Source: a virus
Strand: one strand, 5' to 3'
Length of the DNA: 64,000 nt
IMG/VR virus record: IMGVR_UViG_3300029253_000304
The notes under the pieces were generated by a model. The model did no database searches and was not told where the DNA came from. It was given only the letters and a program-made list of their open reading frames with translations. The position numbers and the translations under genes were made by a program. This document shows positions 38,085 to 64,000 of this stretch, piece by piece (within the stretch, counting starts at the first letter, position 1; the number at the start of each line of letters is the position of its first letter).

Positions 38085-39500
38085 ACGGTCAACAACCCCC
38101 ACCTGAAGGAGGGGGCTTGAAACCCCGCAGGATTCCAATGATTCTCACTCAATGGATTTTTACAGCACGGTTCCGTCCGTGCGACCAAGTATCTATGAGC
38201 TTTCACCGCTGTTGCGGGCGGAATAGCGGGAGTGAGAAAATTGGATTTATGTGGGATATAATCCCAACAATCCAACATTACGTATGTTTATAGCGGCATT
38301 GTGGTCGCGGTTATGTGTTGTACCGCAGCTGCTGCATGTCCAGTTTCTGTCTGCCAGTGTGAGGTCATCTTTTATGAGACCACAAACGCTGCAAGTTTTA
38401 CTGGATGGATACCACTTATCGATTTTGGCAAAAGTCTTTCCTTGCGATGTGAGCTTATACTCAAGCATCGTGCGAAACATACCAAAACCATTGTCGTTAG
38501 TGGATTTGCCAAGCTTCAGAGAGCCAGCCATACCACGAAGGTTTATATCTTCCACAAACACGGCATCATACTGCTTGGCTATCGCAGTACTCAGCGTATG
38601 GCAGAAGTTCTTTCTCTGGTTGGCTGTATGCTCTTGCAGAAGGCGAACCTTATGCAGTTGCTGGTTATAGTTGTTGGAGCCATACTTCATATGAGACAGC
38701 TTACGCTGTTCTTTAGCAAGTTTGGCCTCGGCTTTACGGTAGAAACGTGGATAATTAGCCACATCACCGTTGCTGTCTACATAAAAATTATGGGAGGAGT
38801 AATCCAAACCAAGAGATTTTTCTTTCGTGGCAGCAACAGGCTGGATGTCTTCCCTAAACTCGTACAGCAAGGAAATAAAGTACTTACCGGTACGGGTGCA
38901 GCTGACAGTAGCAGCTTTTAGCGTCCAGCCAGCCTTTGGCAAACAGTGTTTGCTGATTCTTACTTTCCCTATTTTAGGAAGCAAGATAGTGTCATGCCCA
39001 AGCGCAATGGTTTTAGCTGTACGCCCATCCTTTGTTTTATACGAATGAATGTTTGTAGTATAGGACATCTTGCTCTTGTGTTTGGATTTTAGTTGCGGCG
39101 CACCAGTCTTTTTCTCAAGATGCCGTTTATTGGCATCTTTCAAGTCAAGCTGGGTATTGCATAATGCACCACTGTCTATTTCCTTTAAAAAAGGAAATTC
39201 TTTCTTGTATTTAGCAGGAGTAGGAATAAAAAATATCCCTGCCTCGTTCAAGAATGTTTGCGCATCAGTAAGCATGTGATTCCACACAAAGCGTACACAG
39301 CCAAAAGTTTTGGCAAGCAACACTGTCTGCTCTTCAGTAGGATACGCTCTATATTTTATTGCACGGTTTAGTTTTACAGTCGGCACTGCTTGTCACCACC
39401 TTTATTATTAGTATACTAACTTCGCAACACTTAGCAAGGTGTGGCAATTCCTCCCCCACATGAATGAGGGGGAATCCTTGCCACTACTTCTTGAATTCAA
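38085..39500 (-). mobile_element. IS1341-like (tnpB-only) IS200/IS605-family element, approximate bounds
   Basis: tnpB plus structured 3'-flank (hairpins CCCCCACC...GGAGGGGG) compatible with an omega-RNA at the right end; bounds not precisely determinable. Confidence 0.4.
38247..39386 (-). CDS. tnpB: TnpB (IS200/IS605-family OrfB, RuvC-like RNA-guided nuclease), IS1341-type solo copy
   Basis: N-terminal KYRAYPTEEQ; RuvC-like blocks; C-terminal CSVCG...CSSCG zinc finger and DHNAAINI motif; GTG start after AAAGGTGGTGA. Confidence 0.85.
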   Translation of the reverse strand: MPTVKLNRAIKYRAYPTEEQTVLLAKTFGCVRFVWNHMLTDAQTFLNEAGIFFIPTPAKYKKEFPFLKEIDSGALCNTQLDLKDANKRHLEKKTGAPQLKSKHKSKMSYTTNIHSYKTKDGRTAKTIALGHDTILLPKIGKVRISKHCLPKAGWTLKAATVSCTRTGKYFISLLYEFREDIQPVAATKEKSLGLDYSSHNFYVDSNGDVANYPRFYRKAEAKLAKEQRKLSHMKYGSNNYNQQLHKVRLLQEHTANQRKNFCHTLSTAIAKQYDAVFVEDINLRGMAGSLKLGKSTNDNGFGMFRTMLEYKLTSQGKTFAKIDKWYPSSKTCSVCGLIKDDLTLADRNWTCSSCGTTHNRDHNAAINIRNVGLLGLYPT

Positions 39501-43468: not shown

Positions 43469-43870
43469 TTACCCTCCTCTCTTTTTTTGCTGTTCTACAT
43501 AGTGTTGAATCGTAGCGGTAGACACATCTCCGGCAGTGCTTACAAAATAGCTGCGTGTCCACATTTGCATAACCGTGTCAGGAAAAAACTCTTGCTTGAG
43601 TATCCTGCCGGTGGTTCCTTTAATAATTTTCATGATTTCTGCAGCACTTAATGTAGGCGGAGCATTCACGAAAAGATGACAATGGTCTATATGACATTCC
43701 ATTGCCAGTATCACAATGTCGTTTTGCTCACAAATTTGAGTTACAAGTTCCTTGAAACGAGCTTCAAACCCATCCACCAGAAATAATTTTCTCCGATAGC
43801 GTGGGCAAAACACAAAGTGATAATTTATCATAGAAACGGTTGCTTTTGTGCGCCTATAATCTTTTTTCAT
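43469..43870 (-). CDS. tnpA: IS200/IS605 TnpA (HUH Y1 transposase)
   Basis: HUH motif HIDHCHLFV; catalytic Tyr region TRSYFVSTAG; 133 aa; 4 nt from tnpB. Confidence 0.85.
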   Translation of the reverse strand: MKKDYRRTKATVSMINYHFVFCPRYRRKLFLVDGFEARFKELVTQICEQNDIVILAMECHIDHCHLFVNAPPTLSAAEIMKIIKGTTGRILKQEFFPDTVMQMWTRSYFVSTAGDVSTATIQHYVEQQKKRGG

Positions 43871-50015: not shown

Positions 50016-50043
50016 GTGCGAATTGCAGACAATTAAAGACAGA
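50016..50043 (+). promoter_or_regulatory. conserved-spacer promoter (b): TTGCGA-aatCGTGCGAATTGCA-GACAAT
   Basis: same family; lies ~60 nt upstream of omega-RNA-like copy 1. Confidence 0.5.
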
Positions 50044-50094
50044 GCGATTGTGAGATGGGGCGATACCGATGCAGTAGGGATGAGAATCTTAGCA

Positions 50095-50410
50095 GCTAAA
50101 AGAGTCAACAACCCCGCCTAAACCGGTTCGCCGGTTATAGACGGGGCTTGCGGGGCAACCTGTAAGCCCAGTTGATTAGCCTAAGCCCATTGCTCCGGCA
50201 GTGGGGAAAACTACGTTGTGTACTAATAATATAGGCACCTTATCCATGCTCCACAAGTGGTGAGCTCTGCAGGCGTTTCGTTAAACATCTCCGAGGGGAG
50301 GAGAAGTGCGAGCGTCATGTCGAAAGGCTAAAACAGTGCATAACATTGGCGAAGTGGACCACAGGACGCAAGTCCTGACTTATAGTTTTATTACTATTTT
50401 ACGAATGGAG
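50095..50410 (+). ncRNA. IscB-type omega-RNA (HEARO-like) scaffold, copy 1, with no IscB gene downstream (flotillin gene instead)
   Basis: ~85% identical in blocks to 63180-63545; a compensatory pair change inside a GNRA-capped hairpin (CAGGAC-GCAA-GTCCTG here, CAGGGC-GCAA-GCCCTG in copy 2); shared 3' end carrying an RBS. Confidence 0.5.
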
Positions 50411-50421
50411 AAACAAAAATT

Positions 50422-52065
50422 ATGGTATATGTGATTGGAATTGTAGCAGCCCTGATTATTCTCTTTGGATTTCTCTGCTACAAGAAAGCTCCGCCCACGG
50501 AGGCTATCGTTGTAACTGGCTTTGGCCTGTCTAAGCCTAAAGTGGTTTGCGGAAAGGGTACATTTGTTCTGCCCGTTCTTCAACGGGCTGACCGACTGAA
50601 TATGCGCCTTTTGAAAATCGATGTCAAGACTCCTGAAACAGGTGTTAAGACGAAGAACGGCGTAAGTCTCTGGATTGACTCTGTTGTCACGATTCAAGTC
50701 TACAGCGAAAACTCTACCGTTCTGGATGAAGAAGTGAAGGCATCCGGTCTGAAAGACGCCAAGGCGTACATCATGTCCCGACAACAGGCAGCCATCTCGA
50801 ACTTTCTGGGCATGAACGAGCAGGGCATCAATGAGAAAGTTAATGACGTTCTGCAGGGCAATTTGCGTGAGATTGTCTCTGACATGACCGTTGACCAAAT
50901 TCTGACGAACCGCAAGCAGATGGCTGTGAGCGTTATCGAGAATGCTCGCCCCGACCTTGCTAAGATGGGACTTGAGGTCGTGACTTTTAATGTCCAGGAC
51001 ATCAGGGATGCAGTGGATGTTCAAGGCCACAATCACGGCGTTATCGAAGCTATCGGCATTGAACAGGAAGAGCTTGTGAAAAAACAGGCTGAAATTGCCC
51101 GTGCTCAGGCTGCCCGTGATGTAGCCTGCGCGAAGGCCGATGCTGAGATGGCTGCAAATGCCAAGGAAGTTGAAGCGCAGACTGCGATTGCAAAACGCAA
51201 CAATGAATTGCAGCTCGCCAAGGCAAAGCTGAAAGCTGAAGCTGATAAAGCTGCGGCTGACGCAGATGCTGCCGGTCAGATTCAGATGAATCTCCGCGCC
51301 AAAGAAATCAAAGAAGCGGAAGCGGATGCTGAAATCGCCAAGCAGAAGAAAATGGTAGACCTTGCCGCACAGGAAGCCGAGGTCCAGCAACGCAAACTGG
51401 ATGCGGAAGTCCGCAAACAGGCAGATGCTGACTTGTACCGCCGCCAGAAAGAGGCAGAAGCCAAGAAATATGAGGCGGAACGTGCAGCTGAGGCACAGAA
51501 GTTCTCCAAGCAGCAGGAAGCAGAAGGCATTGAGCTTGTCGGTAAGGCAGAAGCTGAAGCGATTCGTCAGAAAGGCTTGGCTGAAGCGGAAGCCATGAAA
51601 CAGAAAGCAGAGGCATATAAGCAGTATAACGATGCGGCTGTGGCTGAAATGCTCATCAAGGTTCTTCCTGACATTGCCAAGAGCGTGGCTCAGCCTTTGT
51701 CCAGCATTGATAAGGTTTCTATCATTGGCGGTGATGCCTCCGGCGTATCCGGCGTTTCCGGGAACGTTCCTATCCTGATGGCTCAAACCATGCAGACGGT
51801 GAAAGAAGCGACTGGCATTGACATGGGCGAAATTGTCCGTGCCAACAGCATCCAGGCAAAGACAAACCGCAACATCAACATTATGACTCAATGTGAACAG
51901 CCTGAGAATAACAAAGAGAAAGGAGGTGCCAAGGCAATGGAACGCGTAGAAGGCGGCTATCTGATTCATGAGAAGAATCTCAACGGTGAGGAAGTCACTC
52001 ATTTTCGACCGGATGTGACCGAAGAAGAGAAGGCTATCATGAAAGACAAAAAGGCCAAAGATTAA
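50422..52065 (+). CDS. flotillin-like SPFH/band-7 protein (FloT/YuaG-like)
   Basis: N-terminal TM then SPFH domain; long AEAEA-rich coiled-coil; 547 aa. Confidence 0.85.
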   Translation: MVYVIGIVAALIILFGFLCYKKAPPTEAIVVTGFGLSKPKVVCGKGTFVLPVLQRADRLNMRLLKIDVKTPETGVKTKNGVSLWIDSVVTIQVYSENSTVLDEEVKASGLKDAKAYIMSRQQAAISNFLGMNEQGINEKVNDVLQGNLREIVSDMTVDQILTNRKQMAVSVIENARPDLAKMGLEVVTFNVQDIRDAVDVQGHNHGVIEAIGIEQEELVKKQAEIARAQAARDVACAKADAEMAANAKEVEAQTAIAKRNNELQLAKAKLKAEADKAAADADAAGQIQMNLRAKEIKEAEADAEIAKQKKMVDLAAQEAEVQQRKLDAEVRKQADADLYRRQKEAEAKKYEAERAAEAQKFSKQQEAEGIELVGKAEAEAIRQKGLAEAEAMKQKAEAYKQYNDAAVAEMLIKVLPDIAKSVAQPLSSIDKVSIIGGDASGVSGVSGNVPILMAQTMQTVKEATGIDMGEIVRANSIQAKTNRNINIMTQCEQPENNKEKGGAKAMERVEGGYLIHEKNLNGEEVTHFRPDVTEEEKAIMKDKKAKD

Positions 52066-52185
52066 AGACAACATGAAAAGAGGGTGACTCGAAAGAGCCA
52101 TCCTTTTTTCTGTTGTGACGCAAACGAAAAGTTCATGGTAGCCATCCAATTTGGGTGACTGTCTTTTTTGCATGTTAAGGCTTTG

Positions 52186-52213
52186 TTGCTGAATTGTGCG
52201 AATTGAAGATAAT
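52186..52213 (+). promoter_or_regulatory. conserved-spacer promoter (c): TTGCTG-aatTGTGCGAATTGAA-GATAAT
   Basis: same family. Confidence 0.5.
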
Positions 52214-52267
52214 TAAAAACAAAAGATGCTTTGTATCAAATCGATTGAAACCGAAGAGGTGAAGTTA

Positions 52268-53071
52268 ATGCTCGGCGTGAGTTTGATTATCATAGCAGCG
52301 GCTATAGTCTACATGGTCGAAACCTATATCAGCACCTATTACACTATCGAATACATGCACGGAACATCGCTGTTCCTTATCCTCCTTGCGAAATATGGCA
52401 CGCCAGTCCTGTTCCTGCTGCTCTGCGCCTACATTGCATATCGCAAATTCCTCAAAAAGCAGAAAGCTGCGGCTTCTGCTGCATCTGAACGGCCTACAAG
52501 CAAAGAAGAGCTGTATACCAACAAAATTCAAACGGCAGTAAAGACAAAAAGCGTCTTCTCAGAGCAGGCTGACCAAATGCTGTATCAGGTACGGCGCTTC
52601 GGGCAAAAAATGGCCGTTGCCTACAGCATGACCCAGGATAGCAAGACATCCGGGGAACAAGCCAAGTGCCTAACGTTATTGGAATCCGCAGAACGTATCT
52701 TCTATGACCGACTGGATGACGCGATTCGCTCGGCTTCAATGTTTGATGAAACGGAATACAAGGCTTTCTGTCAAGGCTCTATCTCGTTTGGAAACAAAGA
52801 AGAAGCGCAGAAAAAGAAAGAAATCTACAATGGTATCGTAAGTACCGTGGATAAGGTAGTTCATGACAATGAGCGCTTAATCCTCCGATTGGATTCTTTA
52901 GCATACGCTCTGAACCAACGTTCTGCCCAGAATCCGTGGGATACAGAGGTTGTGCTCGCAATGTCAAAGCTCGATGCTGTCATTAACAAGACGACGCAGG
53001 ACATCGAGCAGGATGAAGTAATCAGCCGCGAGGCTATGAAGCAATATGATATTTTGAAAGGAGAGTCTTAA
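52268..53071 (+). CDS. membrane protein with two N-terminal TM helices and a coiled-coil cytoplasmic region, unknown function
   Basis: ATG 52268 with GAGGTG RBS (the ORF track start 52226 lies only 6 nt from the predicted TSS). Confidence 0.45.
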   Translation: MLGVSLIIIAAAIVYMVETYISTYYTIEYMHGTSLFLILLAKYGTPVLFLLLCAYIAYRKFLKKQKAAASAASERPTSKEELYTNKIQTAVKTKSVFSEQADQMLYQVRRFGQKMAVAYSMTQDSKTSGEQAKCLTLLESAERIFYDRLDDAIRSASMFDETEYKAFCQGSISFGNKEEAQKKKEIYNGIVSTVDKVVHDNERLILRLDSLAYALNQRSAQNPWDTEVVLAMSKLDAVINKTTQDIEQDEVISREAMKQYDILKGES

Positions 53072-53072
53072 C

Positions 53073-54767
53073 GTGACGAAGAAAAATATTTTCCCTGTAG
53101 TTGCAACCATCGCCGTGGTGGGTGTTGTTCTCGGAGTATTTTCGATGACGGTGATGAGGGACTCGAATGTCAGCATCAGCACGATGACTTCCGAGCAGGC
53201 ATATGCCAACTTGAGCAGCAAGATGAAACGTATCGGGGTGCAGGAAGTATCCGTCAATCCGCAGCAGCTTGATGTATCGGAGTTTCTGGACGCAAAGGAT
53301 GAACTGCCCGACATTGAATCCTCCTACCCATTCGTGGTGGAGGGGAACGGTGATGTCAACATTGAAGTCTTCTCTTCCGGCGAGAAAGCAGCAGAATCCG
53401 GCTCCGATTCTTTCCTGACAAGCATGGCAAAAAAGTTCAATGCCCAGCACAACAAGACTTCCGGAGACAAGACTATGAGTGTCTCCCTGCGCTCCGTTCC
53501 GTCCGGTACGGCGGCTGAGTACATCTCGACGGGAAAGTATCAGCCCGAGTGCTATACCCCCTCAAATACGCTCTTTGGCGAGCTGGTGAAGAACGAGGGC
53601 GTAGAATTGACCGTTGAGGCTGACCGTCTGGTCGGCAATGTGGCGGGTATTCTCGTATCAAAGAAGACAGGGGATATGCTTCGCTCTGAATACGGTGAAG
53701 CGTCTGTTTCTTCCGTTCTGAACGCAACCATCGATGGCAAACTCATGATGGGATACTCGAACCCCTACACAAGTGCTACGGGTCTTAATTTTCTGCTTGA
53801 GGCTCTTGCGAGCAGCGGCAGCGATACGATTGTCGATACGGCTGCTGTTGAGAATTTCCAGAAATTTCAAGCGAACGTCCCTCTCGTATCCTTCACGACC
53901 CAGCAGATGGTCCAGTCGGCAGACAAGGGCATCGTGGACGGCGTTGTCATGGAGTATCAGTCTTATCAGAATGACCCGACCTTACAGCGCAACTACGAGT
54001 TCATCCCGTTCGGTGTGCGGCATGATAACCCCCTGTATTCTATTGGAAGCATCTCGGCCGAAAAGAAGGAAGTTATTGCTGCGTTCGTTTCCCTCTGCGC
54101 CCAGAATCAGGCAGAAGCGACGAAGGACGGGTTCAATGGTCTTGACGACTATGCTTATACAGGCAAGGCATACGACGGCAACACCATCGCACAGGCTCAG
54201 AGTGTCTGGAAAGAAGAGAAGGATTCCGGTATTCCTATTGTGGCAGAGTTCGTTGTCGATACTTCCGGCTCGATGCGCGGCGAACCCCTGAATGCCCTGA
54301 AAACCGCGATGATAAACACCATCCAGTATATCAATGACGACAACTATATCGGCATCATTGGCTTTGATTCAGATGTCAGGGAATACCTGCCCATTGACCA
54401 GTTCTCTCTGACCCAGAAAACTCTGTATAAGGGTGCCGTGAACTCCCTCGATGCGAACGGCAGCACCGCAATGTACAACGGTCTTTGCGTTGCTATGGAC
54501 CGCATCTACCAGAAATCTCAGGAACTGGGTGGGAATTGCACGCCCATCATCTTTGTGCTCACGGACGGTGACAACAATACCGGATATGACTTCTCCGATA
54601 TGAAGAACATCATTGCCGGTATGGATATCCCTATCTATACCATCAGCTACAACTACGCGGCAGACAGCCTCTCGGAACTCGCGTCAATCAATGAGGCGGC
54701 TGCTATCGTTGGTAACAGCGAGGATATCACCTACAAGCTCCGCAACTTGTTCAACGCGGAGATGTAA
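53073..54767 (+). CDS. membrane-anchored von Willebrand factor type A (vWA) domain protein
   Basis: N-terminal TM; C-terminal vWA with MIDAS DTSGSM...T...D and the later block IIFVLTDGDNN. Confidence 0.7.
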   Translation: MTKKNIFPVVATIAVVGVVLGVFSMTVMRDSNVSISTMTSEQAYANLSSKMKRIGVQEVSVNPQQLDVSEFLDAKDELPDIESSYPFVVEGNGDVNIEVFSSGEKAAESGSDSFLTSMAKKFNAQHNKTSGDKTMSVSLRSVPSGTAAEYISTGKYQPECYTPSNTLFGELVKNEGVELTVEADRLVGNVAGILVSKKTGDMLRSEYGEASVSSVLNATIDGKLMMGYSNPYTSATGLNFLLEALASSGSDTIVDTAAVENFQKFQANVPLVSFTTQQMVQSADKGIVDGVVMEYQSYQNDPTLQRNYEFIPFGVRHDNPLYSIGSISAEKKEVIAAFVSLCAQNQAEATKDGFNGLDDYAYTGKAYDGNTIAQAQSVWKEEKDSGIPIVAEFVVDTSGSMRGEPLNALKTAMINTIQYINDDNYIGIIGFDSDVREYLPIDQFSLTQKTLYKGAVNSLDANGSTAMYNGLCVAMDRIYQKSQELGGNCTPIIFVLTDGDNNTGYDFSDMKNIIAGMDIPIYTISYNYAADSLSELASINEAAAIVGNSEDITYKLRNLFNAEM

Positions 54768-55188
54768 TCCAAAAGCGCGGTTTTGTCCGCGCAGCTGCTC
54801 CAAAAGACAGCCTCCACACGGCGAGCAGCGGGAACATGCTGGTCGGAAACGGCACGGTCGTCAGCTGCCAGTGCCACTCGATGGATGAGACGGTCGATAT
54901 GGTCGCCGCCTTGTACAATGGCAGAAGCAGCGCAAGCATAACCATCCTGCAAAAATATATGCCGTTCATCTTTTTGGGTGGGCGGCTTTTTGTTTTGTGA
55001 ATACAGCGATTCAGTGGCGAAGCGAGCCGATTTTACCAGCAGTTTGATATTCTGCGGCATCGGCGTTTTGCGGCATCCAGCGAGAGAATATCGTTTGCTT
55101 CGATGACGAGGCGGCATTTTCGCATTATAAGGTCCTGTTCGAGACCTTCAAGGAGACCTGCTCCGACAATGTCTCCTATAAGGCAGTC

Positions 55189-56625
55189 GTGAACACCATG
55201 AACCAGGAAGATTATCTGAAAGAGAACATCAAAGAAGTGCCCGTCTTTCAGTCTATTGAAAAGCAGAAGCTTGTCTTTCTGGAACAGGCACAGCCTGAGG
55301 ATGAGGTCGAATACGAGATAGTTGCCGATGTCAAGAAAATGCAGGAACTCGTCAAGCCAATCATGCCTAAGATGCCGGTACAGGCGAATCGTATTGTAGT
55401 GGCAGCGGAACCGATGCGCGTTTTCGGGAAACGATATACCGAGGTTCGGCGTGTGGCAGCTGAGGCAGTTAAGCAGCTCCCAAAATTACATATCGACTAT
55501 GATGCCGGGACCATGACCTTCAACGACGAGAATATCGACCTCAATCCGAATCTCAGCGAGGTGGCAAAGAACATCAAGAGCATCCAGAAGTTCTTCTCAG
55601 GCATGGACTACTTTTACGGCGATGTCGAACAGGCCAAGAAGGACTACTTCAAGTACATGACCTGGTATCTGGCTACTCCGTTCATGGCGTATCTGCGGTA
55701 TTTCGCATCGAGGAACAACTACGATACGAAGCTGTTCCCGATGTACGGCGTTATATACGGCGACTCAAACGGCGGCAAGACGACATTTATAAAATTTCTT
55801 GTCAAACTCATGTGCGGTGAGACCGTTAAGATGAACACAACGGAGGATTTCACAGCCACAAGAATCGACGGCCTCAAACGAGTTTGTGAGGGACTGCCGC
55901 TGAACATCGACGACCTCGCCAAGACCCAGTTTCAGAACCATTCAGAACGGGTAATCAAGAACGATGAATGGGGTATCTCTGACAGGCTCGTGAACTATCC
56001 TGCTGTATCTATCACATCGAATAAAATTACCTCGCTGACAAAAGACCTCTCGAAACGCGCTATCATCTGTCGAATTGGTGCTAAAATCGACAACGAGCGC
56101 GGTGCCAAAAACTCGAAGCGTGTGAATGAGAGTATGTCGGAGCTGACAACCGCGTTCTATGGCGAATATGTCCGCCGAATGCTTGTTTGCATCGATGAGA
56201 TGACGACGGAAATGCGTGAAAATGCGAATGGCAAGGAATACTTCCCGGATATCTTCTACGCTTCGTCTAGTGTCATTGCAGATATCTTCGAGGCATGCGG
56301 AATCGATTTGCCGGACTATGTGCGTATCCTGTACTATAACGACTATATGGGTGATGAGAGCATTGGTCGTGCTGCAATTGAGAAAATCGAACTGGCATGG
56401 CAGGCTGACCCGAGCAAGTTCCGGGTTGATAAGAAGCAGAACAGGCTCATTTACTCCTATCCGCCGGATGGACCGTGGTACGAACTGAAATACATTGCAG
56501 ATGAGCTGCCGAACTCCCTCGAAGCAGAGATTTCTGGCGGCAACCAGCTTATCATGAACTACGAGCAGGCACAGGAATTGTTCGGCATCAAGTTTCGGCG
56601 CTGGCTGGGCATCTTTAACCTCTAA
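55189..56625 (+). CDS. P-loop NTPase of uncertain family (possibly P4/D5-type SF3 helicase-like)
   Basis: Walker A GDSNGGKTTF; Walker B-like LNIDDL; ~170 aa unknown N-terminal domain. Confidence 0.5.
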   Translation: MNTMNQEDYLKENIKEVPVFQSIEKQKLVFLEQAQPEDEVEYEIVADVKKMQELVKPIMPKMPVQANRIVVAAEPMRVFGKRYTEVRRVAAEAVKQLPKLHIDYDAGTMTFNDENIDLNPNLSEVAKNIKSIQKFFSGMDYFYGDVEQAKKDYFKYMTWYLATPFMAYLRYFASRNNYDTKLFPMYGVIYGDSNGGKTTFIKFLVKLMCGETVKMNTTEDFTATRIDGLKRVCEGLPLNIDDLAKTQFQNHSERVIKNDEWGISDRLVNYPAVSITSNKITSLTKDLSKRAIICRIGAKIDNERGAKNSKRVNESMSELTTAFYGEYVRRMLVCIDEMTTEMRENANGKEYFPDIFYASSSVIADIFEACGIDLPDYVRILYYNDYMGDESIGRAAIEKIELAWQADPSKFRVDKKQNRLIYSYPPDGPWYELKYIADELPNSLEAEISGGNQLIMNYEQAQELFGIKFRRWLGIFNL

Positions 56626-56676
56626 TATGCATGGCAGGTTCTTTTCGGAGCCTGCCTTCTTATTTCGCAAAAATAG

Positions 56677-56704
56677 TTGCCCATTTGTGCGAATTGCAGA
56701 CAAT
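56677..56704 (+). promoter_or_regulatory. conserved-spacer promoter (d): TTGCCC-attTGTGCGAATTGCA-GACAAT
   Basis: same family. Confidence 0.5.
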
Positions 56705-56784
56705 CAGAAGTAAAGCATAAAGCGAAGGAGCTGAGTACCATCTCAAAATTTGCAAGCAAAAAGTTGATTGAGCGAAATTGCAAT

Positions 56785-57231
56785 ATCATGAAAGACTACG
56801 GCAATGGCTATTCCGTTGAGGAGCTTGCCACAAAATATAGGTTGAGCGTCCGTACTTGCTATCGAGCGTTAGACGACGCGAAACAGGAGGCCAGAATTCA
56901 GTTGGCGCAGGTAGAGGATGCTAGAAAGGCCGAAATTCTTGCTGCGTACAAAGCCAGTGTCCCTCTCAAGGAAATGATTGCAAAATTCAACGTGGCAGAA
57001 GGATATTGCAGCATGGTTGCCAACGATGCGGGCCTGACTGAAAACCGTAGAAATGAGCGCATCAAAATTAGACAAAGACCGCGCAATGAGAATATCTTTC
57101 GAGAATACGAGAGCGGCGTGCCGGTGCAGAAACTATCCGAAAAATATCAGCTCTCGGTTCCTGGTATTTACAAGGTTATCCAGCGAGTGAGAAGGCAAAA
57201 GGAGGCGATGGAGTTTTGCAATGGATTGTGA
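56785..57231 (+). CDS. small regulator with two tandem HTH-like repeats (start uncertain: TTG 56761 or ATG 56785)
   Basis: two copies of Y-x-x-G-x-SV-x-x-L-x-x-KY-x-LSV-x-x-x-Y+ modules; the ORF track start 56677 lies inside the promoter. Confidence 0.4.
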   Translation: MMKDYGNGYSVEELATKYRLSVRTCYRALDDAKQEARIQLAQVEDARKAEILAAYKASVPLKEMIAKFNVAEGYCSMVANDAGLTENRRNERIKIRQRPRNENIFREYESGVPVQKLSEKYQLSVPGIYKVIQRVRRQKEAMEFCNGL

Positions 57232-57854
57232 AGCAAACCAAATCGAAAGGATATGAGTTCACCTTCGATATCGTGAAAGGCAAGGCCGTTATCGGGCAGG
57301 CACACTATATTCCGAAAGTGCTGCGGCAAGGTTATGGCATCCGGCTGAATGATTCCAAGTTCCTGCTGCAATACATGCCAGCTGCTGACGCAAGGGCGTA
57401 CATGCGCGGCATCAACACGAAAGATATTCTGAGACACCCTTTTGCTATCTGTGAGAACAACCGCAGGGTAGGCGAGATTTCCGTCATCCATACAAAAACC
57501 GGATTCCTCCAAGGATACAATTCTATCGCCATGCAACTGTATGGCGAGGAATACCAGAGCTACAAAATCGGCTTTGGAAAAGAAGGAGTATGCTGCCCTG
57601 TATTCCTTTGCGGACAGCAAATCGCCCAAATCAATAAGAGCGCGGTGGTCAAGGATAATCTGGATGAATACCTGATTTACGCAGTGAATGAAAAGGCACT
57701 GATGCCGTCCGTCATGTTCGCCATTTATATCGATGGAATATACTACGCAAACCGAGGCGTGTATGTGGATGACGCAACGACTATCAACTGCGAATACAGC
57801 TTGAACGAGGAAGTCCTGTCCCACTACGACCCGAATTTTGTCAAGGGACTATGA
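57216..57854 (+). CDS. hypothetical protein (212 aa)
   Basis: overlaps the end of the HTH gene (operon); no motifs. Confidence 0.45.
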   Translation: MQWIVKQTKSKGYEFTFDIVKGKAVIGQAHYIPKVLRQGYGIRLNDSKFLLQYMPAADARAYMRGINTKDILRHPFAICENNRRVGEISVIHTKTGFLQGYNSIAMQLYGEEYQSYKIGFGKEGVCCPVFLCGQQIAQINKSAVVKDNLDEYLIYAVNEKALMPSVMFAIYIDGIYYANRGVYVDDATTINCEYSLNEEVLSHYDPNFVKGL

Positions 57855-57887
57855 CTCCGATAACTGGTATTCACAGACAATATCATA

Positions 57888-57915
57888 TTGCGAAACTGTG
57901 CGAATCGCAGACAAT
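57888..57915 (+). promoter_or_regulatory. conserved-spacer promoter (e): TTGCGA-aacTGTGCGAATCGCA-GACAAT
   Basis: same family. Confidence 0.5.
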
Positions 57916-57954
57916 TAAAAGTGAATGAATTACAAAAGCTACAGAGGATAAACA

Positions 57955-58551
57955 ATGAGCTATGAACCCATTATCACACCGGGCAGGAATTTCTTTCTTG
58001 TCTCGACGGAGTACAAAGAGAGCTGCTCTGCCTGGTGCCGCAAGCAAATTAGAGCGACGCTGAGGACCTGTCAGGGACGAGTCATCATCATTGATGCAAC
58101 GGGCGAGTACGCGGACTTGGCGCTTGAACATGACAGATTGATTCGAGAGAAAATCCCGTCCATCATTTATCGGTATAAGCTGGTGGACGGGAAACCGTAT
58201 ATTGCTCATGTCATTGAAGTTGATACGGAAGCAAATGAAGCACCGCACCTGATTGTATACGATATCAGCCGGACCATAATCATCAGCTGGAAGGTCGGCG
58301 TGGAGGCAATTGATAAAATCCTGCAATCCTATGCCGTGATGCAGGACAGTGAAATTGCGTGGCTGTATGTTCCGCTGGACTTATATACCAATGTCAAGCC
58401 TGAAACCGAATCCTGGAACATTCTGGAACGAACCATCAAGGGCAATGAAGGAAAGCTCATGACGGTGCTGACAACACGAAAATTCAACATCGGCATGGTT
58501 CAGCGCTGTTTGCATATGACAAAAAATAAACTTCTGGAGGATAGCAAATGA
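57955..58551 (+). CDS. hypothetical protein (198 aa)
   Basis: RBS AGAGGA; first gene after promoter (e). Confidence 0.45.
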   Translation: MSYEPIITPGRNFFLVSTEYKESCSAWCRKQIRATLRTCQGRVIIIDATGEYADLALEHDRLIREKIPSIIYRYKLVDGKPYIAHVIEVDTEANEAPHLIVYDISRTIIISWKVGVEAIDKILQSYAVMQDSEIAWLYVPLDLYTNVKPETESWNILERTIKGNEGKLMTVLTTRKFNIGMVQRCLHMTKNKLLEDSK

Positions 58552-59435
58552 CCAATGAACAGCTGAGAATTGCATTGACGGCGAATGCCGTTACCAAACA
58601 GACCCGTAACCATTTTGGGTTCAGTGACCCGTGTGGGAAGACTCTGGAAGAGTACAACAAATCTTCAATGCTTTGCTGTGTGACGGCAGCGCAGAAAATG
58701 AACACGCCGGGTTTCGAGCGTGTCCTTGCTGCACAGATTTTCCCCTGCTTCACCATCGGCTGCTGGAACCAGACGAAGACGGTCTATGATTTTGACTACG
58801 AGTTCCAGAAAATTCTTATGGATACGGATGACATGGCGATTCATCAGGATATCCTGCAGCGGCTTCCGATTCGTGATTTCTTTATCCCGGTGTATGACAG
58901 CTACGACTACAACGGTATGTTCGTGCATGTGGAATTCGAAGAGAAAGAGAAGACCACTGCTTTCGGCATCGTTCTTGTCGGCCCGGCCAAAGGCAGCCAT
59001 GATGATTTCACGTTCCTGACTCTGCCTGCCTGGGCCAAAGAAAACCAGAGCTTGACGGAAGCAACTCGGAGCACGAAAGAATACCTGGAAAAGGCAGCCG
59101 GGCAGCGGCAGGTAAATGGTATCAGCGTACCGGCTGTGATGGAAGCAGTTCCTTCGGTCTTTGACGGCGGCACGCCTTATGTTCGCCTGGCAATCCTGTG
59201 TGCCTACTATCTTGCCAGTAAGAACCCTGATGTCCGCTTGGAAACTTCCAAAAAGCGTGACCGCCCGGTATTCGTGTTTCAGGGAAAGGCACAGCGAATC
59301 AACGTCAAGGCATATACCGTTGGTGAGAATGCGGCCAAAGAATACAAGAAGAACGGGGAAGGCAAAACTCCCCGCTGGCGGCATTACTGGTGCGGCAATG
59401 GCCGGGAACGTCGGGAATGCAAGTTTATTTACTGA
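58548..59435 (+). CDS. hypothetical protein (295 aa)
   Basis: ATGA overlap with the upstream gene; RBS GGAGGA; no motifs; the antisense ORF 58665..59552 is rejected. Confidence 0.45.
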   Translation: MTNEQLRIALTANAVTKQTRNHFGFSDPCGKTLEEYNKSSMLCCVTAAQKMNTPGFERVLAAQIFPCFTIGCWNQTKTVYDFDYEFQKILMDTDDMAIHQDILQRLPIRDFFIPVYDSYDYNGMFVHVEFEEKEKTTAFGIVLVGPAKGSHDDFTFLTLPAWAKENQSLTEATRSTKEYLEKAAGQRQVNGISVPAVMEAVPSVFDGGTPYVRLAILCAYYLASKNPDVRLETSKKRDRPVFVFQGKAQRINVKAYTVGENAAKEYKKNGEGKTPRWRHYWCGNGRERRECKFIY

Positions 59436-59453
59436 TGGCGGTGAGGGTGAATC

Positions 59454-60161
59454 ATGGCTCCCCATACTTATCAGGACCCGATTGGGTTCTATGAATGGTT
59501 CGATGACCTTCCTTATGCTATCCAGGATAGTATTCTGAAACACCTGCCGCATATGGAAGGCGAGGAATGGCTCATTGTCATTATCCTTGCAGCTCTTCTT
59601 CTGATGATTCTGGTTTCAGCGTATCTGGGCTTTGCAAGACATAATGTCAAAAAAACGAGTGAACGACTCAACGCTTTGAAAGAGCTGAACAACACGACTG
59701 AATTCATGCCGGTCGAGGCGCAGTACCGCTACTATCTACGTTCTGATACGAAGCTGGAATACGAGGAGTTCTCGCTCCCGAAGTTCTTTCGCCGTGAAGT
59801 GAGGGAAAACTTCAAGCTGTACAATACCCTGCTTGGCAATGCTCGGGCAAACACAGTATTGTATGAAACATACGGCCGCGAAATCCAGGAACTCCCGGAT
59901 TGGACAGAATCGGATGACGATTGCGGGCGGCATATCCCGTTCTTTCTCTACCACAACATCGAGAAAGAGTTGTACGATGAAACTGTCCTGGACTGCCCTG
60001 TAACGAACCCTGAGTTTGTCTGTACGAAAAGCTATCTGCCCAAAGATGCCAAAGAGCCGATTGAGACGGAAGAGACCTATACACTGGAGGAACTGGAAGA
60101 GTACATACGCCGCTTGAAGGTTGCAGCCGATGTCAAGAAGAACAGCCAAAACGCAGGCTAA
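59454..60161 (+). CDS. hypothetical single-TM protein (235 aa)
   Basis: one TM helix (LIVIILAALLLMILVSAYLGF); acidic C-terminal region. Confidence 0.45.
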   Translation: MAPHTYQDPIGFYEWFDDLPYAIQDSILKHLPHMEGEEWLIVIILAALLLMILVSAYLGFARHNVKKTSERLNALKELNNTTEFMPVEAQYRYYLRSDTKLEYEEFSLPKFFRREVRENFKLYNTLLGNARANTVLYETYGREIQELPDWTESDDDCGRHIPFFLYHNIEKELYDETVLDCPVTNPEFVCTKSYLPKDAKEPIETEETYTLEELEEYIRRLKVAADVKKNSQNAG

Positions 60162-60364
60162 AAGGGTAGCGGCCAAAGGCAAGAGGCAAGACTCCGTGGC
60201 TGTCAGTTGCAGAACGTCTTCACACCTGAATTCTTGAATTTTGCCAGTGCTTTGATGAATAATGAAGAGCGCACGCCCCGTCTATAGCCGTAAGGCTTAG
60301 GCGGGGTTAGCTCGTGTTTTGGAGCAGAAATCAGAAATTATTGTTTTCCGTTCTGATAAAGGTA

Positions 60365-60392
60365 TTGCCTGGTTGTGCGAACTGGATACTAT
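60365..60392 (+). promoter_or_regulatory. conserved-spacer promoter (f): TTGCCT-ggtTGTGCGAACTGGA-TACTAT
   Basis: same family; drives the TnpB-like gene. Confidence 0.5.
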
Positions 60393-60417
60393 AAAATTAT
60401 AGTAAACTGCAAGGGAG

Positions 60418-61911
60418 GTGAGTGCTTTGAATATTACATCCAGCTATCAGGTGAGAATCGTCAATTGCAGCGTAAACCTCAATGAGACTGTTCGCATTTA
60501 TCGCAAGGCACTTGCCTACCTGATTGGTGTTGTCAATGAAAACTGGGATGCCGTCAAACGCATTGATACCGGCAATCTTGAGCAGCAGCACTATATTGAC
60601 AAGCTAGTTCATGGCACCAAAAATCATGAGGCTAAGTATCCTGAATTTGATAAGCAGTTCTATAAGTACCCGTCGTATTTGCGCCGTGCAACTATTACGG
60701 CCGCCATTGGCGCGGTAAGCGGCTATCACAGCAATCTAGCTAATTGGGAAATGTCCGACAAAAAGGACAAACAGCCTACTCTTCAAGTAGATAGAAAAGC
60801 TTTTCCTACATTCTTCCGCGTTGATATGTTCCTTGTGGACGGCACACCCGAAAAGGTGAAAGTCGTAAAAAATCCTAAACCGAAGGATGAACTCACGGCA
60901 GAAGAAAAGAAAATCGAGAAAGCAAAACGCAAAGCTGCTGAATTACAGAACTCTCAAAATGAACTGACGGTTTTGAGTAATCACTGTACCGTTCGCTTGA
61001 AAGTTTTCTATAAAAACGACTGGGTGTGGGCAACTGTCACGCTGCGTAAAACGGATATTGCCTATTTACGCAAATACTGGATGCACGCTTGCTCGTCAGC
61101 CCCTATGCTCGAAAAGCGTTTCGGCAAATACAGCCTGCGCTTTGCTTTTGAGGAAAATACTACTCTTAGTGATACTCCTATCGATAAGCAGCGCGTCTGC
61201 GCCGTCGATTTAGGTCTCAATACCGATGCGGTGTGCAGCATCATGACCGCTGATGGAACTATCCTTGCCAGGAAGTTTATCAACTTCCCGAGTGACAAAG
61301 ACCATCTGTATCATGTACTTAACCGCATCAAGAAGTTCCAAAGGCTGCATGGGTCCCGGGAAGCGCATAACTTTTGGGCCTATGCAAAGCGCGTTAATGA
61401 TGAATTGTCCAAAAAGATTGCCGCCGCGATTGTAGAATTTGCGGTCCTCTATTCTGCCGATGTGATTGTTTTTGAGCACTTAGATTTCAAAGGCAAGAAA
61501 TCATCGTGCAAAAAGCAAAAAATCCAGATGTGGCGTAAAAATGGTATCCAGCGCATTGCGGAACATAAAGCGCACCGCTGCGGTATTCGTATCTCGCACA
61601 TCTGCGCTTGGGGGACTAGCAAACTTGCGTATGACGGCAGCGGCGAAGTGAAACGCGCACCAGATAACCATTCCCTTGCTACTTTTACAAGCAGCAAACA
61701 ATACAATGCGGACTTGAATGCGTGCTACAACATCGGCGCACGCTATTTCATCCGTGAGGTAACAAAACCCATGTCAAAAAAGGCATGGTCTCAATGCAAG
61801 GCTGAAGTTCCTGACATTGAGCGTAGAACCCAATGCACTTTACACTCTCTCAGACAGCTGCATGCCTTTTTGAGCACTCCAAAAGAGGCTCAGCCTGAAG
61901 CAGCCGCCTGA
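60418..61911 (+). CDS. TnpB-like RuvC nuclease (497 aa) with degenerate zinc finger
   Basis: RuvC-I AVDLGLNTD, RuvC-II VIVFEHLDF, RuvC-III YNADLNACYNIGARYF; only a partial C...C where CxxC...CxxC is expected. Confidence 0.7.
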   Translation: MSALNITSSYQVRIVNCSVNLNETVRIYRKALAYLIGVVNENWDAVKRIDTGNLEQQHYIDKLVHGTKNHEAKYPEFDKQFYKYPSYLRRATITAAIGAVSGYHSNLANWEMSDKKDKQPTLQVDRKAFPTFFRVDMFLVDGTPEKVKVVKNPKPKDELTAEEKKIEKAKRKAAELQNSQNELTVLSNHCTVRLKVFYKNDWVWATVTLRKTDIAYLRKYWMHACSSAPMLEKRFGKYSLRFAFEENTTLSDTPIDKQRVCAVDLGLNTDAVCSIMTADGTILARKFINFPSDKDHLYHVLNRIKKFQRLHGSREAHNFWAYAKRVNDELSKKIAAAIVEFAVLYSADVIVFEHLDFKGKKSSCKKQKIQMWRKNGIQRIAEHKAHRCGIRISHICAWGTSKLAYDGSGEVKRAPDNHSLATFTSSKQYNADLNACYNIGARYFIREVTKPMSKKAWSQCKAEVPDIERRTQCTLHSLRQLHAFLSTPKEAQPEAAA

Positions 61912-62147
61912 TGTAGATGTACTGTGTTGCGACAACTTTGCGGGAGACTAACCCTTATGTGGTGACCAATGCCGTCAGGCGTTGTGAGCTAAGTTTGGGC
62001 TGTATCTCTACCTTCGGGTAACGCAGAGACTTACCGTGGGGCTACAACCCACGGAGAAGCCCCGTTTAAGCCGCAAGGCTTAGGTGAGGAGGTTCACATT
62101 CTGCGGGCATTGACAAACAGCCAAAAATGTGCTTAGGTTAAAAATCC

Positions 62148-62175
62148 TTGCAAAAACGTACGATACCCATACAAT
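62148..62175 (+). promoter_or_regulatory. promoter TTGCAA-16-TACAAT without the conserved spacer
   Basis: read from sequence; upstream of the 62216 gene. Confidence 0.35.
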
Positions 62176-62215
62176 AAGCACAAATGAAATAACGAATGAA
62201 TAGGAGATACATACC

Positions 62216-62824
62216 ATGAGTGAACAGAATACCAATGCTCAGCTCGAAGCTTATCGGACTCTCGTTGACGATTTCAAGCGTTTCGTCAGTTCTGAAATTC
62301 GGGCAGAGGAAAACAGCTACCGGATTGTGGACATGACTTCCGAAGATGCCGAAATCGATGACCCGAGCGTTCCGGTGACTCAACTGGAGGACGAAAAAGC
62401 AGAGAAGCTCGCCGGTATCTGCATGGACCTGTCCAACGCTACGCTGTGGCTCTACTACAACCACGACAAGTTTGCGAACGTCGAGTTTATGCCTCTGAAA
62501 GAGGAGACTTTGAAGGAATACCAGAAGCAGGCTCAGAATGCTCTGAATGAACCGAAGAGCCCTCTGTATCTGAAATCCTGGTATCAGCTCATTGAAATGT
62601 TGAGTCAGGAATGTATCCCGCAGCGCTACGAGGACGACGGTCAGCGATATACAGACGTCTATGTGAACACCTATATGCTCATGTACCTGACCATGACCCG
62701 ACTCAAGAACGGCGGAACCTTTACACGCCTTGCAAACGGGCAGGGAAGCGATGCTGTGAAAATCACGACCATCGCAATGTACTACTTCTCCAGCCTTTTG
62801 ACGGTTCTCTGCACTGAATATTAA
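62216..62824 (+). CDS. hypothetical protein (202 aa)
   Basis: RBS AGGAGA; no motifs. Confidence 0.45.
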   Translation: MSEQNTNAQLEAYRTLVDDFKRFVSSEIRAEENSYRIVDMTSEDAEIDDPSVPVTQLEDEKAEKLAGICMDLSNATLWLYYNHDKFANVEFMPLKEETLKEYQKQAQNALNEPKSPLYLKSWYQLIEMLSQECIPQRYEDDGQRYTDVYVNTYMLMYLTMTRLKNGGTFTRLANGQGSDAVKITTIAMYYFSSLLTVLCTEY

Positions 62825-62882
62825 GAATTTTTTTCCCGTGTGAGCAGCGACGCTCATGCGGGAATTTTTTTGTAATTTTCTA

Positions 62883-62910
62883 TTGCTAATCTGTGCGAAT
62901 TGCGTACAAT
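62883..62910 (+). promoter_or_regulatory. conserved-spacer promoter (g): TTGCTA-atcTGTGCGAATTGCG-TACAAT
   Basis: same family; upstream of small ORF, omega-RNA copy 2 and the IscB-like ORF. Confidence 0.5.
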
Positions 62911-62944
62911 AGCAAATATAAAGTAGAAGTATATCGAATCGCTG

Positions 62945-62980
62945 CCCCGCATGAATTGTTTGTGCGGGGCTTTTTGTTTG
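62945..62980 (+). terminator. terminator/attenuator-like hairpin between promoter (g) and the next start codon
   Basis: stem CCCCGCA...TGCGGGG followed by CTTTTTGTTTG, immediately before RBS GGAAAGGAAA. Confidence 0.4.
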
Positions 62981-62997
62981 CGGAAAGGAAATGCATT

Positions 62998-63204
62998 ATG
63001 TACGGTTTGTCAGAAGAAAGCTTAACGATTGTTGGTATTATTTTGATTATTGTTGGTGTCGCTATGATTGGTTGGGGATTTGAATGGAATCAGGACATTA
63101 CCAATGATAAACGGGTCGGAACCGTTGTCAGAGACATTGGCGTTATGGTTTTGGCAACCGGCATCATATTTGTGATGCAGCGGGCAGTCAACAACCCCGC
63201 CTAA
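62998..63204 (+). CDS. small two-TM membrane protein; last five codons and stop lie in the conserved omega-RNA 5' region
   Basis: ATG 62998 with RBS; hydrophobic helices; C-terminal ...VNNPA* encoded by GTCAACAACCCCGCCTAA. Confidence 0.35.
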   Translation: MYGLSEESLTIVGIILIIVGVAMIGWGFEWNQDITNDKRVGTVVRDIGVMVLATGIIFVMQRAVNNPA

Positions 63205-63545
63205 ACCGGTTCGCCGGTTATAGGCGGGGCTTGCGGGGCAACCCGTAAGCCCGGTTGATTAGCCTTGGTGAACGGCAACTTCGGTTGCTGCGAACTCCGT
63301 TATGCATTTGATGAGCAATCATCTTCATAATATAGGCACCCCGATTATGCTCCACAAGTGTCGGGCTCTGCGGGCAGTGTATGTGTCAATGACGCAAGCC
63401 GTTGATATGTATTACGTTAAAAATCTCTAAGGGTAGGAGATGTGCGGCTGCCATGCCGAAAGGCTAAAACAGTGCATAACATTGGCGAAGTGGACCACAG
63501 GGCGCAAGCCCTGACTTATAGTTTCATTACTATTTAACGAAAGGA
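63180..63545 (+). ncRNA. IscB-type omega-RNA (HEARO-like), copy 2, immediately upstream of the IscB-like ORF
   Basis: conserved with copy 1; the 5' ~15 nt differ between copies (guide-like); GNRA-capped hairpins; 3' end carries the RBS of the downstream ORF. Confidence 0.6.
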
Positions 63546-63554
63546 GTGCCTTGC

Positions 63555-64000
63555 ATGAGCACTTGCGTTTGTGTTCTCAGCAACAGTGGTGAACGCTTAA
63601 TGCCTACCTTCCGTCTTGGCAAGGTACGCCGACTCTTGAAAGACGGAAAAGCAAAAATCGTTAAGCATCATCCTTTTACTATTCAACTGCTGTATGACAG
63701 CAAGACAAACACTCAACCCATCGAAATCTGCGAAGACGTGGGCTACAACTACATCGGCATCAGCGTGAAAAGCAAATCTCACGAATATGTGTCTGCCCAG
63801 TATGATACATTGCAGGATGAGAAGGAACATCACGATGATTGCCGCAAGTATCGCCGCACACGCAGAAACAGACTGCGTTACCGTAAACCGCGCTTCGATA
63901 ACCGCAAGCGCAGCGAAGGTTGGCTTGCACCTTCTCTGGAACATAAGAAGCAGCTGAATATCCGTCTTATCGAACGGTATGTATCTGTAATTCCGATTAC
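63555..64000 (+). CDS. iscB: IscB-like protein, N-terminal part (3'-partial at window end)
   Basis: N-terminal PLMP-type motif (RLMPTFRLGKVRRLLKDGKAKIVKHHPFTIQLLYD); Arg-rich segment then RFDNRKRSEGWLAPS, as recalled for IscB/Cas9-ancestor proteins; open to window end. Confidence 0.65.
   Translation, partial: MSTCVCVLSNSGERLMPTFRLGKVRRLLKDGKAKIVKHHPFTIQLLYDSKTNTQPIEICEDVGYNYIGISVKSKSHEYVSAQYDTLQDEKEHHDDCRKYRRTRRNRLRYRKPRFDNRKRSEGWLAPSLEHKKQLNIRLIERYVSVIPI

Follow-up and report, generated by a model that had tools for sequence, protein, structure and literature searches.

Two omega RNA scaffolds of an IscB transposon family in a probable gut phage: an apparently intact element and a probable one-ended remnant

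IscB proteins and their omega RNAs, from which Cas9 descends, are in demand as compact genome editors. Among the closest described systems is GstIscB (ISGst-type, Geobacillus stearothermophilus; Meers et al. 2023, PMC10055086), where the scaffold derives from the right end (RE) of the transposon, the guide lies outside the transposon boundary, read-in transcription is needed and TTCAT serves as target-adjacent motif (TAM). According to the same study, about 1.5% of iscB genes have a tnpA gene nearby and ~98% of iscB loci are non-autonomous (PMC10055086). The ISC elements (Kapitonov, Makarova and Koonin 2016, PMC4810608) begin with 5'-GTCA, insert at N/ATGA (the slash marking the insertion point) and share their ends with elements that carry TnpB on the opposite strand. 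Here we describe a 64,000-nt stretch of viral DNA (IMG/VR record IMGVR_UViG_3300029253_000304; this whole stretch is referred to as the window) with two copies of a structured repeat, copy 1 (50104..50405) and copy 2 (63187..63546), both on the plus strand. Very probably, both are scaffolds of one IscB transposon family, with copy 2 belonging to an apparently intact element and copy 1 being a remnant.

The two copies can be aligned from a common GTCAAC (50104 and 63187, respectively) through ACGAA directly 5' of GGAG (50405 and 63542), and a 40-nt scaffold block occurs exactly twice in the window, against zero occurrences expected (100 shuffles). The near-identical blocks of the original prediction, including both that it quoted, are thus real, as are the divergent segments of unequal length between them: relative to copy 1, copy 2 contains two insertions (17 nt and 35 nt) and two substituted hairpin regions. 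The conserved unit begins at 50104 and 63187, and not at 50095 and 63180 as first placed. The compensatory double change reported for a GNRA-capped hairpin was likewise found, with CAGGAC-GCAA-GTCCTG in copy 1 (50362..50377, plus strand) versus CAGGGC-GCAA-GCCCTG in copy 2 (63498..63513, plus strand, followed by a U-rich tract). The two differ by covariation of the centre pair (GGAC/GTCC versus GGGC/GCCC), and the G-U intermediate (GGGC...GTCC) is present in the sibling copies L007 and L027 (L numbers denote sibling loci and contigs from public data). Upstream of GTCAAC, the sequences of the two copies are unrelated, again as stated before.

In both copies, the Rfam model HEARO (RF02033, IscB omega RNA) was matched from position 1 to position 211, pseudoknot region included, and no other site in the window gave a match. 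Copy 1 (50104-50364) scored 91.2 bits (E = 3e-17), above the gathering score of 83. Copy 2 (63187-63500) reached 50.7 bits (E = 4e-9 locally and 2e-7 for the whole window), a shortfall explained by its 17-nt and 35-nt hairpin insertions; for comparison, Meers et al. took HEARO matches down to 15 bits if they adjoined iscB (PMC10055086). Apart from the two extra peripheral hairpins of copy 2, both copies have 3' hairpins outside the Rfam model, and Meers et al. remarked likewise on the model (PMC10055086). Copy 2 lies upstream of an iscB gene, on the same strand and within 500 bp, whereas copy 1 is followed by a flotillin-like gene. With full-length covariance-model matches for both, the proposed HEARO-type identity stands. 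A trpB-motif match at 62867-62981 was dismissed as a weak hit (E = 0.71) to a terminator-like hairpin.

Folding points in the same direction. Compared with dinucleotide shuffles, both copies fold much better (z-scores of the minimum free energy of -3.98 for copy 1 and -5.24 for copy 2). In an alignment of 35 distinct scaffold copies from the window and public relatives, 99% of cells were paired in the consensus fold, and 13 base pairs were changed on both sides, versus 4.5 +/- 1.2 in 500 column shuffles and 1-6 with slid partners (the structure being derived from the same alignment, and most changes separating the two lineages with short and long scaffolds). For the window copies, 86 pairs were compared, six being compensatory, 10 changed on one side and four broken. 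One might regard the repeats as mere transposon-end DNA, or as another RNA class without a guide role, given that the first hairpin looks transposase-binding and recurs at the far end of the element. In view of the full-length HEARO matches of both copies, covariation beyond the terminal hairpin, tight linkage of the scaffold to iscB in more than 40 loci and the existing structures of homologous IscB-omega RNA complexes, we give this reading hardly any credence. Judged from their sequences, both repeats are omega RNA (HEARO) scaffolds with a guide role, belonging to one IS200/IS605-type 'ISC' transposon family that encodes IscB.

The 34-nt core of the scaffold was found in 51 IMG/VR viral contigs (23-389 kb), with no exact match in 185,579 reference genomes, and a megablast of 49000-64000 against GenBank phages gave no match. 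Besides viral and metagenome contigs, the family was seen in a 141.6-kb 'Lachnospiraceae MAG' contig, which is similar in length to the related viral contigs and thus possibly this phage binned as a metagenome-assembled genome (MAG). At most of the 51 loci the scaffold precedes an IscB of 456-477 aa. About 20 different left flanks occur among these loci, all stopping at the same base before GTCAAC. This fixes the element boundary, so that the 16 bases upstream represent the flank and hence the guide. The view that the bases 5' of the conserved block are guides acquired from insertion flanks is thereby corroborated. For copy 2, the guide segment is TGTGATGCAGCGGGCA, the last 16 nt of the host flank (63171..63186, plus strand), its length being set by analogy with characterised IscBs.

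The scaffold of copy 2 (63187..63546, long form) is at the same time the omega-proximal transposon end (RE in the TnpA convention). It includes a subterminal imperfect hairpin (CCCCGCCTAAACCGG..CCGGTTATAGGCGGGG, 63195..63229, plus strand) that forms the first omega RNA stem and, as DNA, likely represents the TnpA-binding hairpin; the motif is found again in the ends of a nearby element encoding a 497-aa TnpB-like protein, as well as in the far end of full elements. In full elements, iscB is followed by 109-130 nt ending in a hairpin (CCCCACCTAAGCC..GGCTATAGATGGGG) that resembles the first hairpin of the scaffold (CCCCGCCTAAACCGG..CCGGTTATAGACGGGG). Sequences diverge after CATAATT, followed by ATGAA at most sites and by ATGAG, ATGGA, ATGTA or ATAAA at the others. 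In L013 and L036, perfect matches to the copy 2 guide directly join ATGAAC or ATAAAC, which assigns the motif to the target rather than to the element. By these comparisons, the copy 2 element is predicted to extend from 63187 to ~65034 (1,848 bp) and to have the target N/ATGAA (TTCAT on the other strand). From 5' to 3', it consists of the scaffold, a ribosome-binding site (RBS), iscB (456 aa) and a 109-nt far end with a transposase-type hairpin, the far end being taken from L056, where ATGAA follows it.

At seven of nine distinct ATG-type sites, the ATG of the motif opens an open reading frame (ORF) of more than 100 codons (123-421 aa; one of >107 aa runs off the locus end), which places these insertions between the RBS of a gene and its start codon. 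The left-flank guide often includes the Shine-Dalgarno sequence of the next gene (loci L003-L052, L056; window 63187). The nuclease would thus be directed at regions of translation start, where a rival phage may find it difficult to escape by mutation.

The copy 2 element has the features of the IS200/IS605 (ISC) group, namely subterminal imperfect hairpins at both ends and neither terminal inverted repeats nor a target-site duplication. Site-specific insertion and mobility are evident from ~20 sites and from empty sites that carry the motif. As in the ISC2 transposons (PMC4810608), which share the subterminal imperfect hairpins and the lack of a target-site duplication, the element has a 5'-GTCA terminus and sits immediately 5' of ATGA, and the IscB strand is opposite to that of TnpB in elements with the same ends. 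Unlike in the ISC2 report, which dealt with bacterial and archaeal genomes, the ~20 sites lie in phage contigs and the target ATG is often the start codon of the next gene. A Y1 (HUH) TnpA gene is absent from the 1,848 bp, where there is room for iscB only; the element is therefore non-autonomous, and we class it as an apparently intact, non-autonomous IS605/ISC element.

The resemblance to GstIscB elements extends to the RE-derived scaffold, the guide just outside the boundary, the co-oriented upstream gene, the motif (TTCAT is the reverse complement of ATGAA), the non-autonomous state, the presence of sibling TnpB-type elements with similar ends and a TnpA coming from elsewhere. Unlike GstIscB, the element is carried by a gut phage population and not by a bacterial chromosome. 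This likeness is one of element features; the protein was compared with solved IscBs (E about 1e-34) and its activity is putative. The upstream gene is a small, membrane-like ORF of 68 aa (62998..63204, plus strand), whose last codons and stop lie inside the element. By analogy, it is the likely source of read-in transcription giving guide plus scaffold, and such a same-strand gene is consistent with the read-in requirement of GstIscB.

Only 8 nt separate the scaffold end of copy 2 from the ATG of iscB at 63555, the RBS being AAAGGAG at 63540-63546. The 5' part of iscB (63555..64000, plus strand, 148 codons) is cut by the window end. It matches Pfam RRXRR (PF14239, the IscB N-terminal region) with E = 6e-41, in agreement with the IscB-like N-terminus (PLMP region) originally recognised behind copy 2 and its RBS. 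For extension past base 64000, the product of the 68-aa upstream ORF, fused to the element, was looked up in public assemblies and found recorded exactly in 454 blocks; the 239-aa ORF 62138..62857, looked up with the same aim, gave no record. Contig L056 (ENA ERZ28637140, 143,889 bp) has two mismatches to window positions 56998-64000 in 7,003 nt, and L055 has four. Both encode the identical 148 aa and run on into an intact 456-aa ORF annotated with RRXRR and HNH.

A proxy IscB (146/148 residues identical to the window) matched Pfam RRXRR (E = 1e-46) and HNH (E = 4e-7) as well as the solved structures 11HR, 7XHT (OgeuIscB) and 7UTN, with E values from 2e-35 to 1e-33. The RuvC-I D, RuvC-II E, HNH histidines and RuvC-III H..D are aligned with their counterparts in the solved IscBs, the motifs EDVG, ATVEVG, HMHH and HSNDAY falling on catalytic positions. 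As seen in the near-identical contigs, the ORF behind copy 2 thus has both RuvC and HNH, the lack of which would have refuted the original prediction. The protein thus shares with OgeuIscB (PDB 7XHT, 7UTN, 8CSZ) and with 11HR the order PLMP/RRXRR, RuvC-I, bridge helix, RuvC-II, HNH and RuvC-III and the same catalytic residues, whereas the solved chains are ~40 residues longer (495-496 aa versus 456 aa). A passage of PMC12660989 gives NWRRNA as the TAM of OgeuIscB, to be compared with the ATGAA deduced here. Relatives with 52-92% identity are encoded in Lachnospiraceae, Firmicutes and Clostridia assemblies.

If copy 2 works like its homologues GstIscB and OgeuIscB, read-in transcription from the small upstream gene would yield an RNA made up of the 16-nt host flank as guide and the scaffold of copy 2. 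IscB loaded with this RNA would cut DNA in which the guide 16-mer adjoins ATGAA. This arrangement exists at the unoccupied site, be it the junction that remains after Y1 excision or the locus in a co-infecting sibling phage without the insertion. Recombinational repair from the occupied copy would then restore or spread the element, and a Y1 TnpA supplied in trans would move it. All of these steps, transcription, cutting, repair-driven spread and action of TnpA in trans, are modelled on the homologous systems.

Sibling phages provide further sites that match guides. In the window, a 16/16 match to the guide of the L037 IscB element is followed by ATGAA within the flotillin ORF (protospacer plus motif, 51187..51207, plus strand), and in L037 an IscB element is inserted exactly at the site equivalent to 51187-51202/ATGAA. 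Window positions 56983-56998 correspond to the guide of a sibling IscB element in L013, L019, L030 and L036, but are followed in the window by AAGGAT, not ATGAA; in these four loci, that sibling element replaces the last 218 nt of the region of a Mor-like gene. L013 was considered as the empty partner for a clean comparison of occupied and empty copy 2 sites and was rejected, as it has 2.1 kb between left and right flanks. Judging by the alignments, the elements at 56998 and at the copy 2 site sit at mosaic junctions and are not simple insertions.

Copy 1 (50104..50405) is a short form of the scaffold without the two peripheral hairpins. It is preceded by the guide-position segment CTTAGCAGCTAAAAGA (50088..50103, plus strand), which is matched in element-free alleles, and is followed, instead of by iscB, by the flotillin-like gene (50407..52065 including its RBS, plus strand; ORF 50422-52065, 547 aa, Pfam SPFH/Band 7 and Flotillin). 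Copy 1 is missing from six sibling alleles, in five of which (L013, L037, L064, L067 and L071) the site reads GCTAAAAAA-CTGAAT(A/G)T-GGAG...ATG, and in the sixth (L070) GCTAAAAGA-TTGAATGT-GGAG...ATG. Since these element-free alleles contain the GGAG and its spacer, the GGAG at 50407-50410, originally counted as part of the repeated region, is the flotillin gene's own RBS and lies outside the repeat. In comparison with these alleles, copy 1 stands in place of ~8 nt of flank. Neither a second transposon end nor a far-end hairpin was found after 50405, the downstream sequence being identical to that of the element-free alleles. With a single end only, copy 1 could not be excised by a Y1 transposase.

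In L052, the short scaffold type is joined to an intact 456-aa IscB with a normal far end followed by ATGAA. Judged from this linkage, the short form is a natural working variant and the ancestor of copy 1 was a full element. This short-scaffold ancestor would have kept the omega-proximal end and the full scaffold and lost iscB, the far end and ~8 nt of flank. A simple insertion with subsequent internal deletion was considered and does not fit, as the ~8 nt of flank are gone as well (junction ACGAA/TGGAG). Nor can copy 1 be classified as a PATE, a mobile, protein-less IS605 derivative with both transposon ends, because only the omega-proximal end is retained. From its sequence context, copy 1 is probably a decaying, site-blocking, one-ended remnant that reflects a late stage of a homing element. 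Of the original claim of two scaffold copies near each other, the omega RNA nature of both holds, with the correction that copy 1 is no spare of an intact unit but a copy that lacks the nuclease. A second copy is also less noteworthy than was thought, as a transposon family would normally have several HEARO copies, some of them without an ORF.

Alternatively, copy 1 could be a working guide-only element that would be transcribed with its 16-nt flank and loaded in trans on the IscB of copy 2. It would then cut siblings that are empty at the flotillin leader (L070) and be copied in by repair, at the expense of IscB. Its scaffold is complete, with a HEARO score above that of copy 2, its 3' core (50321-50350) is identical to that of copy 2 at 30/30 positions, and the IscB paired with a short scaffold in L052 is, by reading of the sequence, very like that of L056. 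L070 moreover has a perfect 16/16 protospacer, and the solo allele is in the majority among the matches listed that encode an identical flotillin protein (6/10). However, the L070 protospacer is followed by TTGAAT, and thus by TTGAA rather than an ATGAA-type motif; as the first base A is constant at all other sites observed, cutting at the L070 site guided by copy 1 is doubtful, and GstIscB is reported to be highly sensitive to TAM changes (PMC10055086). The commoner empty alleles (L013, L037, L064, L067 and L071) have one mismatch to the guide, at the second base from the motif, followed by CTGAAT. In addition, no consensus promoter was found upstream of copy 1, its conservation does not exceed that of its flanks, and its intact look can be accounted for by gene conversion. 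We consider a guide-only role unlikely.

The position of copy 1, 16 nt 5' of the flotillin start codon and abutting the RBS, also raises the question if it acts in cis as a leader of the flotillin-like operon, where the GNRA hairpin and U-rich tract would attenuate read-through or IscB binding would modulate translation. The hairpin with its T-rich tail was flagged as terminator-like, and many contigs share the arrangement, behind either of two left flanks (the window type or that of L032). On the other hand, alleles with an identical flotillin protein manage without copy 1 (L064, L067, L070 and L071), there is no excess conservation of copy 1, and every full element has this hairpin and tail in front of iscB, which makes them no peculiarity of the flotillin gene. 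We rank such a co-opted leader well below the guide-only element, and both below the site-blocking remnant, which is our preferred reading of copy 1.

An argument from purifying selection on copy 1 had to be dropped: compared with L021, the flanks are 99-100% identical, the same as the scaffold. Furthermore, copy 1 is 99% identical to the short scaffold of L052 over the first 180 alignment columns, whereas its 3' core, identical to copy 2, agrees with L052 at only 20/30 positions. The solo scaffold at the flotillin site of L065 is a recombinant, with a 5' half of copy 1 type and a 3' half of copy 2 type that includes the 35-nt hairpin and the GGGC/GCCC stem. The L065 recombinant indicates that gene conversion between scaffold copies occurs, which explains part of the mosaic first put down to selection alone. 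The interpretation of the block pattern as selection on RNA structure is therefore retained in part: compensatory pairs and covariation speak for it, but gene conversion contributes, and copy 1 is no better conserved than its surroundings. Occasional gene conversion from nuclease-linked copies, as suggested by these comparisons, would keep copy 1 looking fresh. In L032 (IMGVR_UViG_3300029220_000234), the same solo scaffold and flotillin gene follow another left flank (...GCAAGTGAT/GTCAAC), joined exactly at the element boundary. Arrangements of this kind suggest that scaffold copies may act as portable homology for phage genome rearrangement.

Several points weigh against the overall assignment of copy 2 to an intact element and copy 1 to a remnant of the same family. 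The HEARO score of copy 2 is below the gathering score. As the window stops at codon 148, the predicted intactness of iscB in this molecule rests on the near-identical contigs, and the sibling contigs L048 and L053 have a truncated iscB at the same site. Relative to L013, the copy 2 element replaces the 2.1 kb mentioned above, which are themselves bounded by ATGAA on both sides. The sole TnpA gene of the window (43469..43870) belongs to an element with different ends and a TTTAC-type flank, a cognate TnpA being seen only in L007. Transcription of either guide is putative, and to this are added the missing consensus promoter of copy 1 and the TTGAA in the allele that matches its guide.

Other loci show elements in various states of decay. 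In L009, the scaffold runs into the next host gene, with the fusion at the ATG; L048, from a related phage with the element at exactly the copy 2 site, has lost 1,174 nt from within iscB; and L042 and L053 carry truncated iscB genes. Together with copy 1, these alleles are what one would expect of a homing element in its decay phase, and like degenerating homing-endonuclease alleles they have lost the nuclease and still occupy and split the target site. The two independent iscB truncations of L042 and L048 break at the same nucleotide (window 63603), after ...GAACGCTTAATGC (codon 16-17), through the internal deletion in the case of L048 and through fusion to unrelated sequence in L042. The shared break may reflect a recombination hot spot or chance microhomology. 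Accessory genes have a hot spot 5' of the flotillin gene: L065 and L072 have a PIN / PhdYeFM toxin-antitoxin pair there, and L065 additionally encodes a 420-aa IscB, in opposite orientation and a short distance upstream of the solo scaffold.

The window contains further mobile elements, in total one TnpA gene, two TnpB genes and two TnpB-like genes. An autonomous-looking IS200/IS605 element on the minus strand (41453-44016), absent from this site in L021, encodes the TnpA (43469..43870; Pfam Y1_Tnp, E = 2e-33) and a 578-aa ORF (41728..43464). It is flanked by TTTTAC and TTTTCC and has CCCACGATTTCAATCGTGGG hairpins at both ends and a ~260-nt non-coding tail. The 578-aa ORF had no Pfam or PDB match and shows no more than a faint RuvC-II-like similarity to the 497-aa TnpB-like protein; it may be a very divergent TnpB-like nuclease. 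With its CCCACGATTTCAATCGTGGG hairpins and TTTAC flank, this element is an unlikely source of the transposase that mobilises the IscB elements.

The 497-aa protein is encoded by a non-autonomous IS605-type sibling element (60257..62097, plus strand, left flank TTTGAT), which is missing in L013, L036 and L048. The protein is a divergent TnpB-like one that matches Pfam TNB only weakly (E = 0.0016) and the TnpB structure 9nzp in the PDB with E = 9e-7. The end hairpins of this element and of the IscB element belong to one family; seen from these ends, the TnpB-like gene is on the opposite strand. A version of this TnpB-like element in L007 comes with its own Y1 TnpA and matching end hairpins. The element of a cognate Y1 TnpA would be expected to carry the hairpins CCCCGCCTAA...TATAGACGGGG, and by this comparison the L007 TnpA is the best candidate for the enzyme moving the IscB elements. 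The two TnpB genes proper, both on the minus strand and both with HTH, OrfB_IS605 and TNB domain matches, encode 379 aa (38247..39386) and 369 aa (element 48219-49547). The latter element is missing in L021 and sits between the GGGAGGA RBS and the ATG of a 486-aa gene, bounded by a GAAAAACA repeat.

The replicon probably represents a large phage of the human gut. IMG/VR contigs of ~140 kb and metagenome contigs of up to 296 kb contain near-identical DNA, and phage-type genes are represented by RecE-like and ExoV/Dda-like PHROG matches and the Mor-like gene; a PHROGs scan of ten large ORFs revealed nothing beyond the RecE-like and ExoV/Dda-like matches. Between the two scaffolds, a 295-aa ORF (58548..59435, plus strand) has a precomputed Pfam AcrVA2-like match (PF26125) in identical public contigs, which was not listed in our Pfam scan at E<=0.01; the ORF may encode an anti-CRISPR-like protein. 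At 21981-22049 (plus strand), a match to the hepatitis delta virus (HDV)-like ribozyme of Faecalibacterium prausnitzii stayed below threshold (RF02682; 39.4 bits versus a gathering score of 44, E = 9e-4); it may represent a small ribozyme that cleaves itself and may give a clue to the host lineage.

The defining features of these elements all fit known IscB/ISC biology and involve no new mechanism; a literature search on phage-borne IscB found nothing specific. What is new is the setting and the resolution, with a highly prevalent gut phage, present in hundreds of gut metagenomes, that carries many OMEGA-type elements and provides a natural allelic series across ~20 insertion sites, in which occupied alleles can be set against matching empty, decayed and recombinant ones. 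It offers a natural 456-aa IscB with a deduced ATGAA motif and two natural scaffold sizes, the short scaffold being a natural pointer to dispensable parts of the omega RNA. The system could address homing by transposon-encoded RNA-guided nucleases between co-infecting phages as well as the question if orphan guide RNAs exploit a nuclease in trans. Should copy 1 after all act as a guide-only element, it would exploit the IscB homing system as a hyperparasite, much as a miniature inverted-repeat transposable element (MITE) lives off a transposase. In a wider sense, the phage population would on this reading exemplify in nature the RNA-guided 'non-restorative' homing between co-infecting phages that, according to a 2026 review, is still theoretical.

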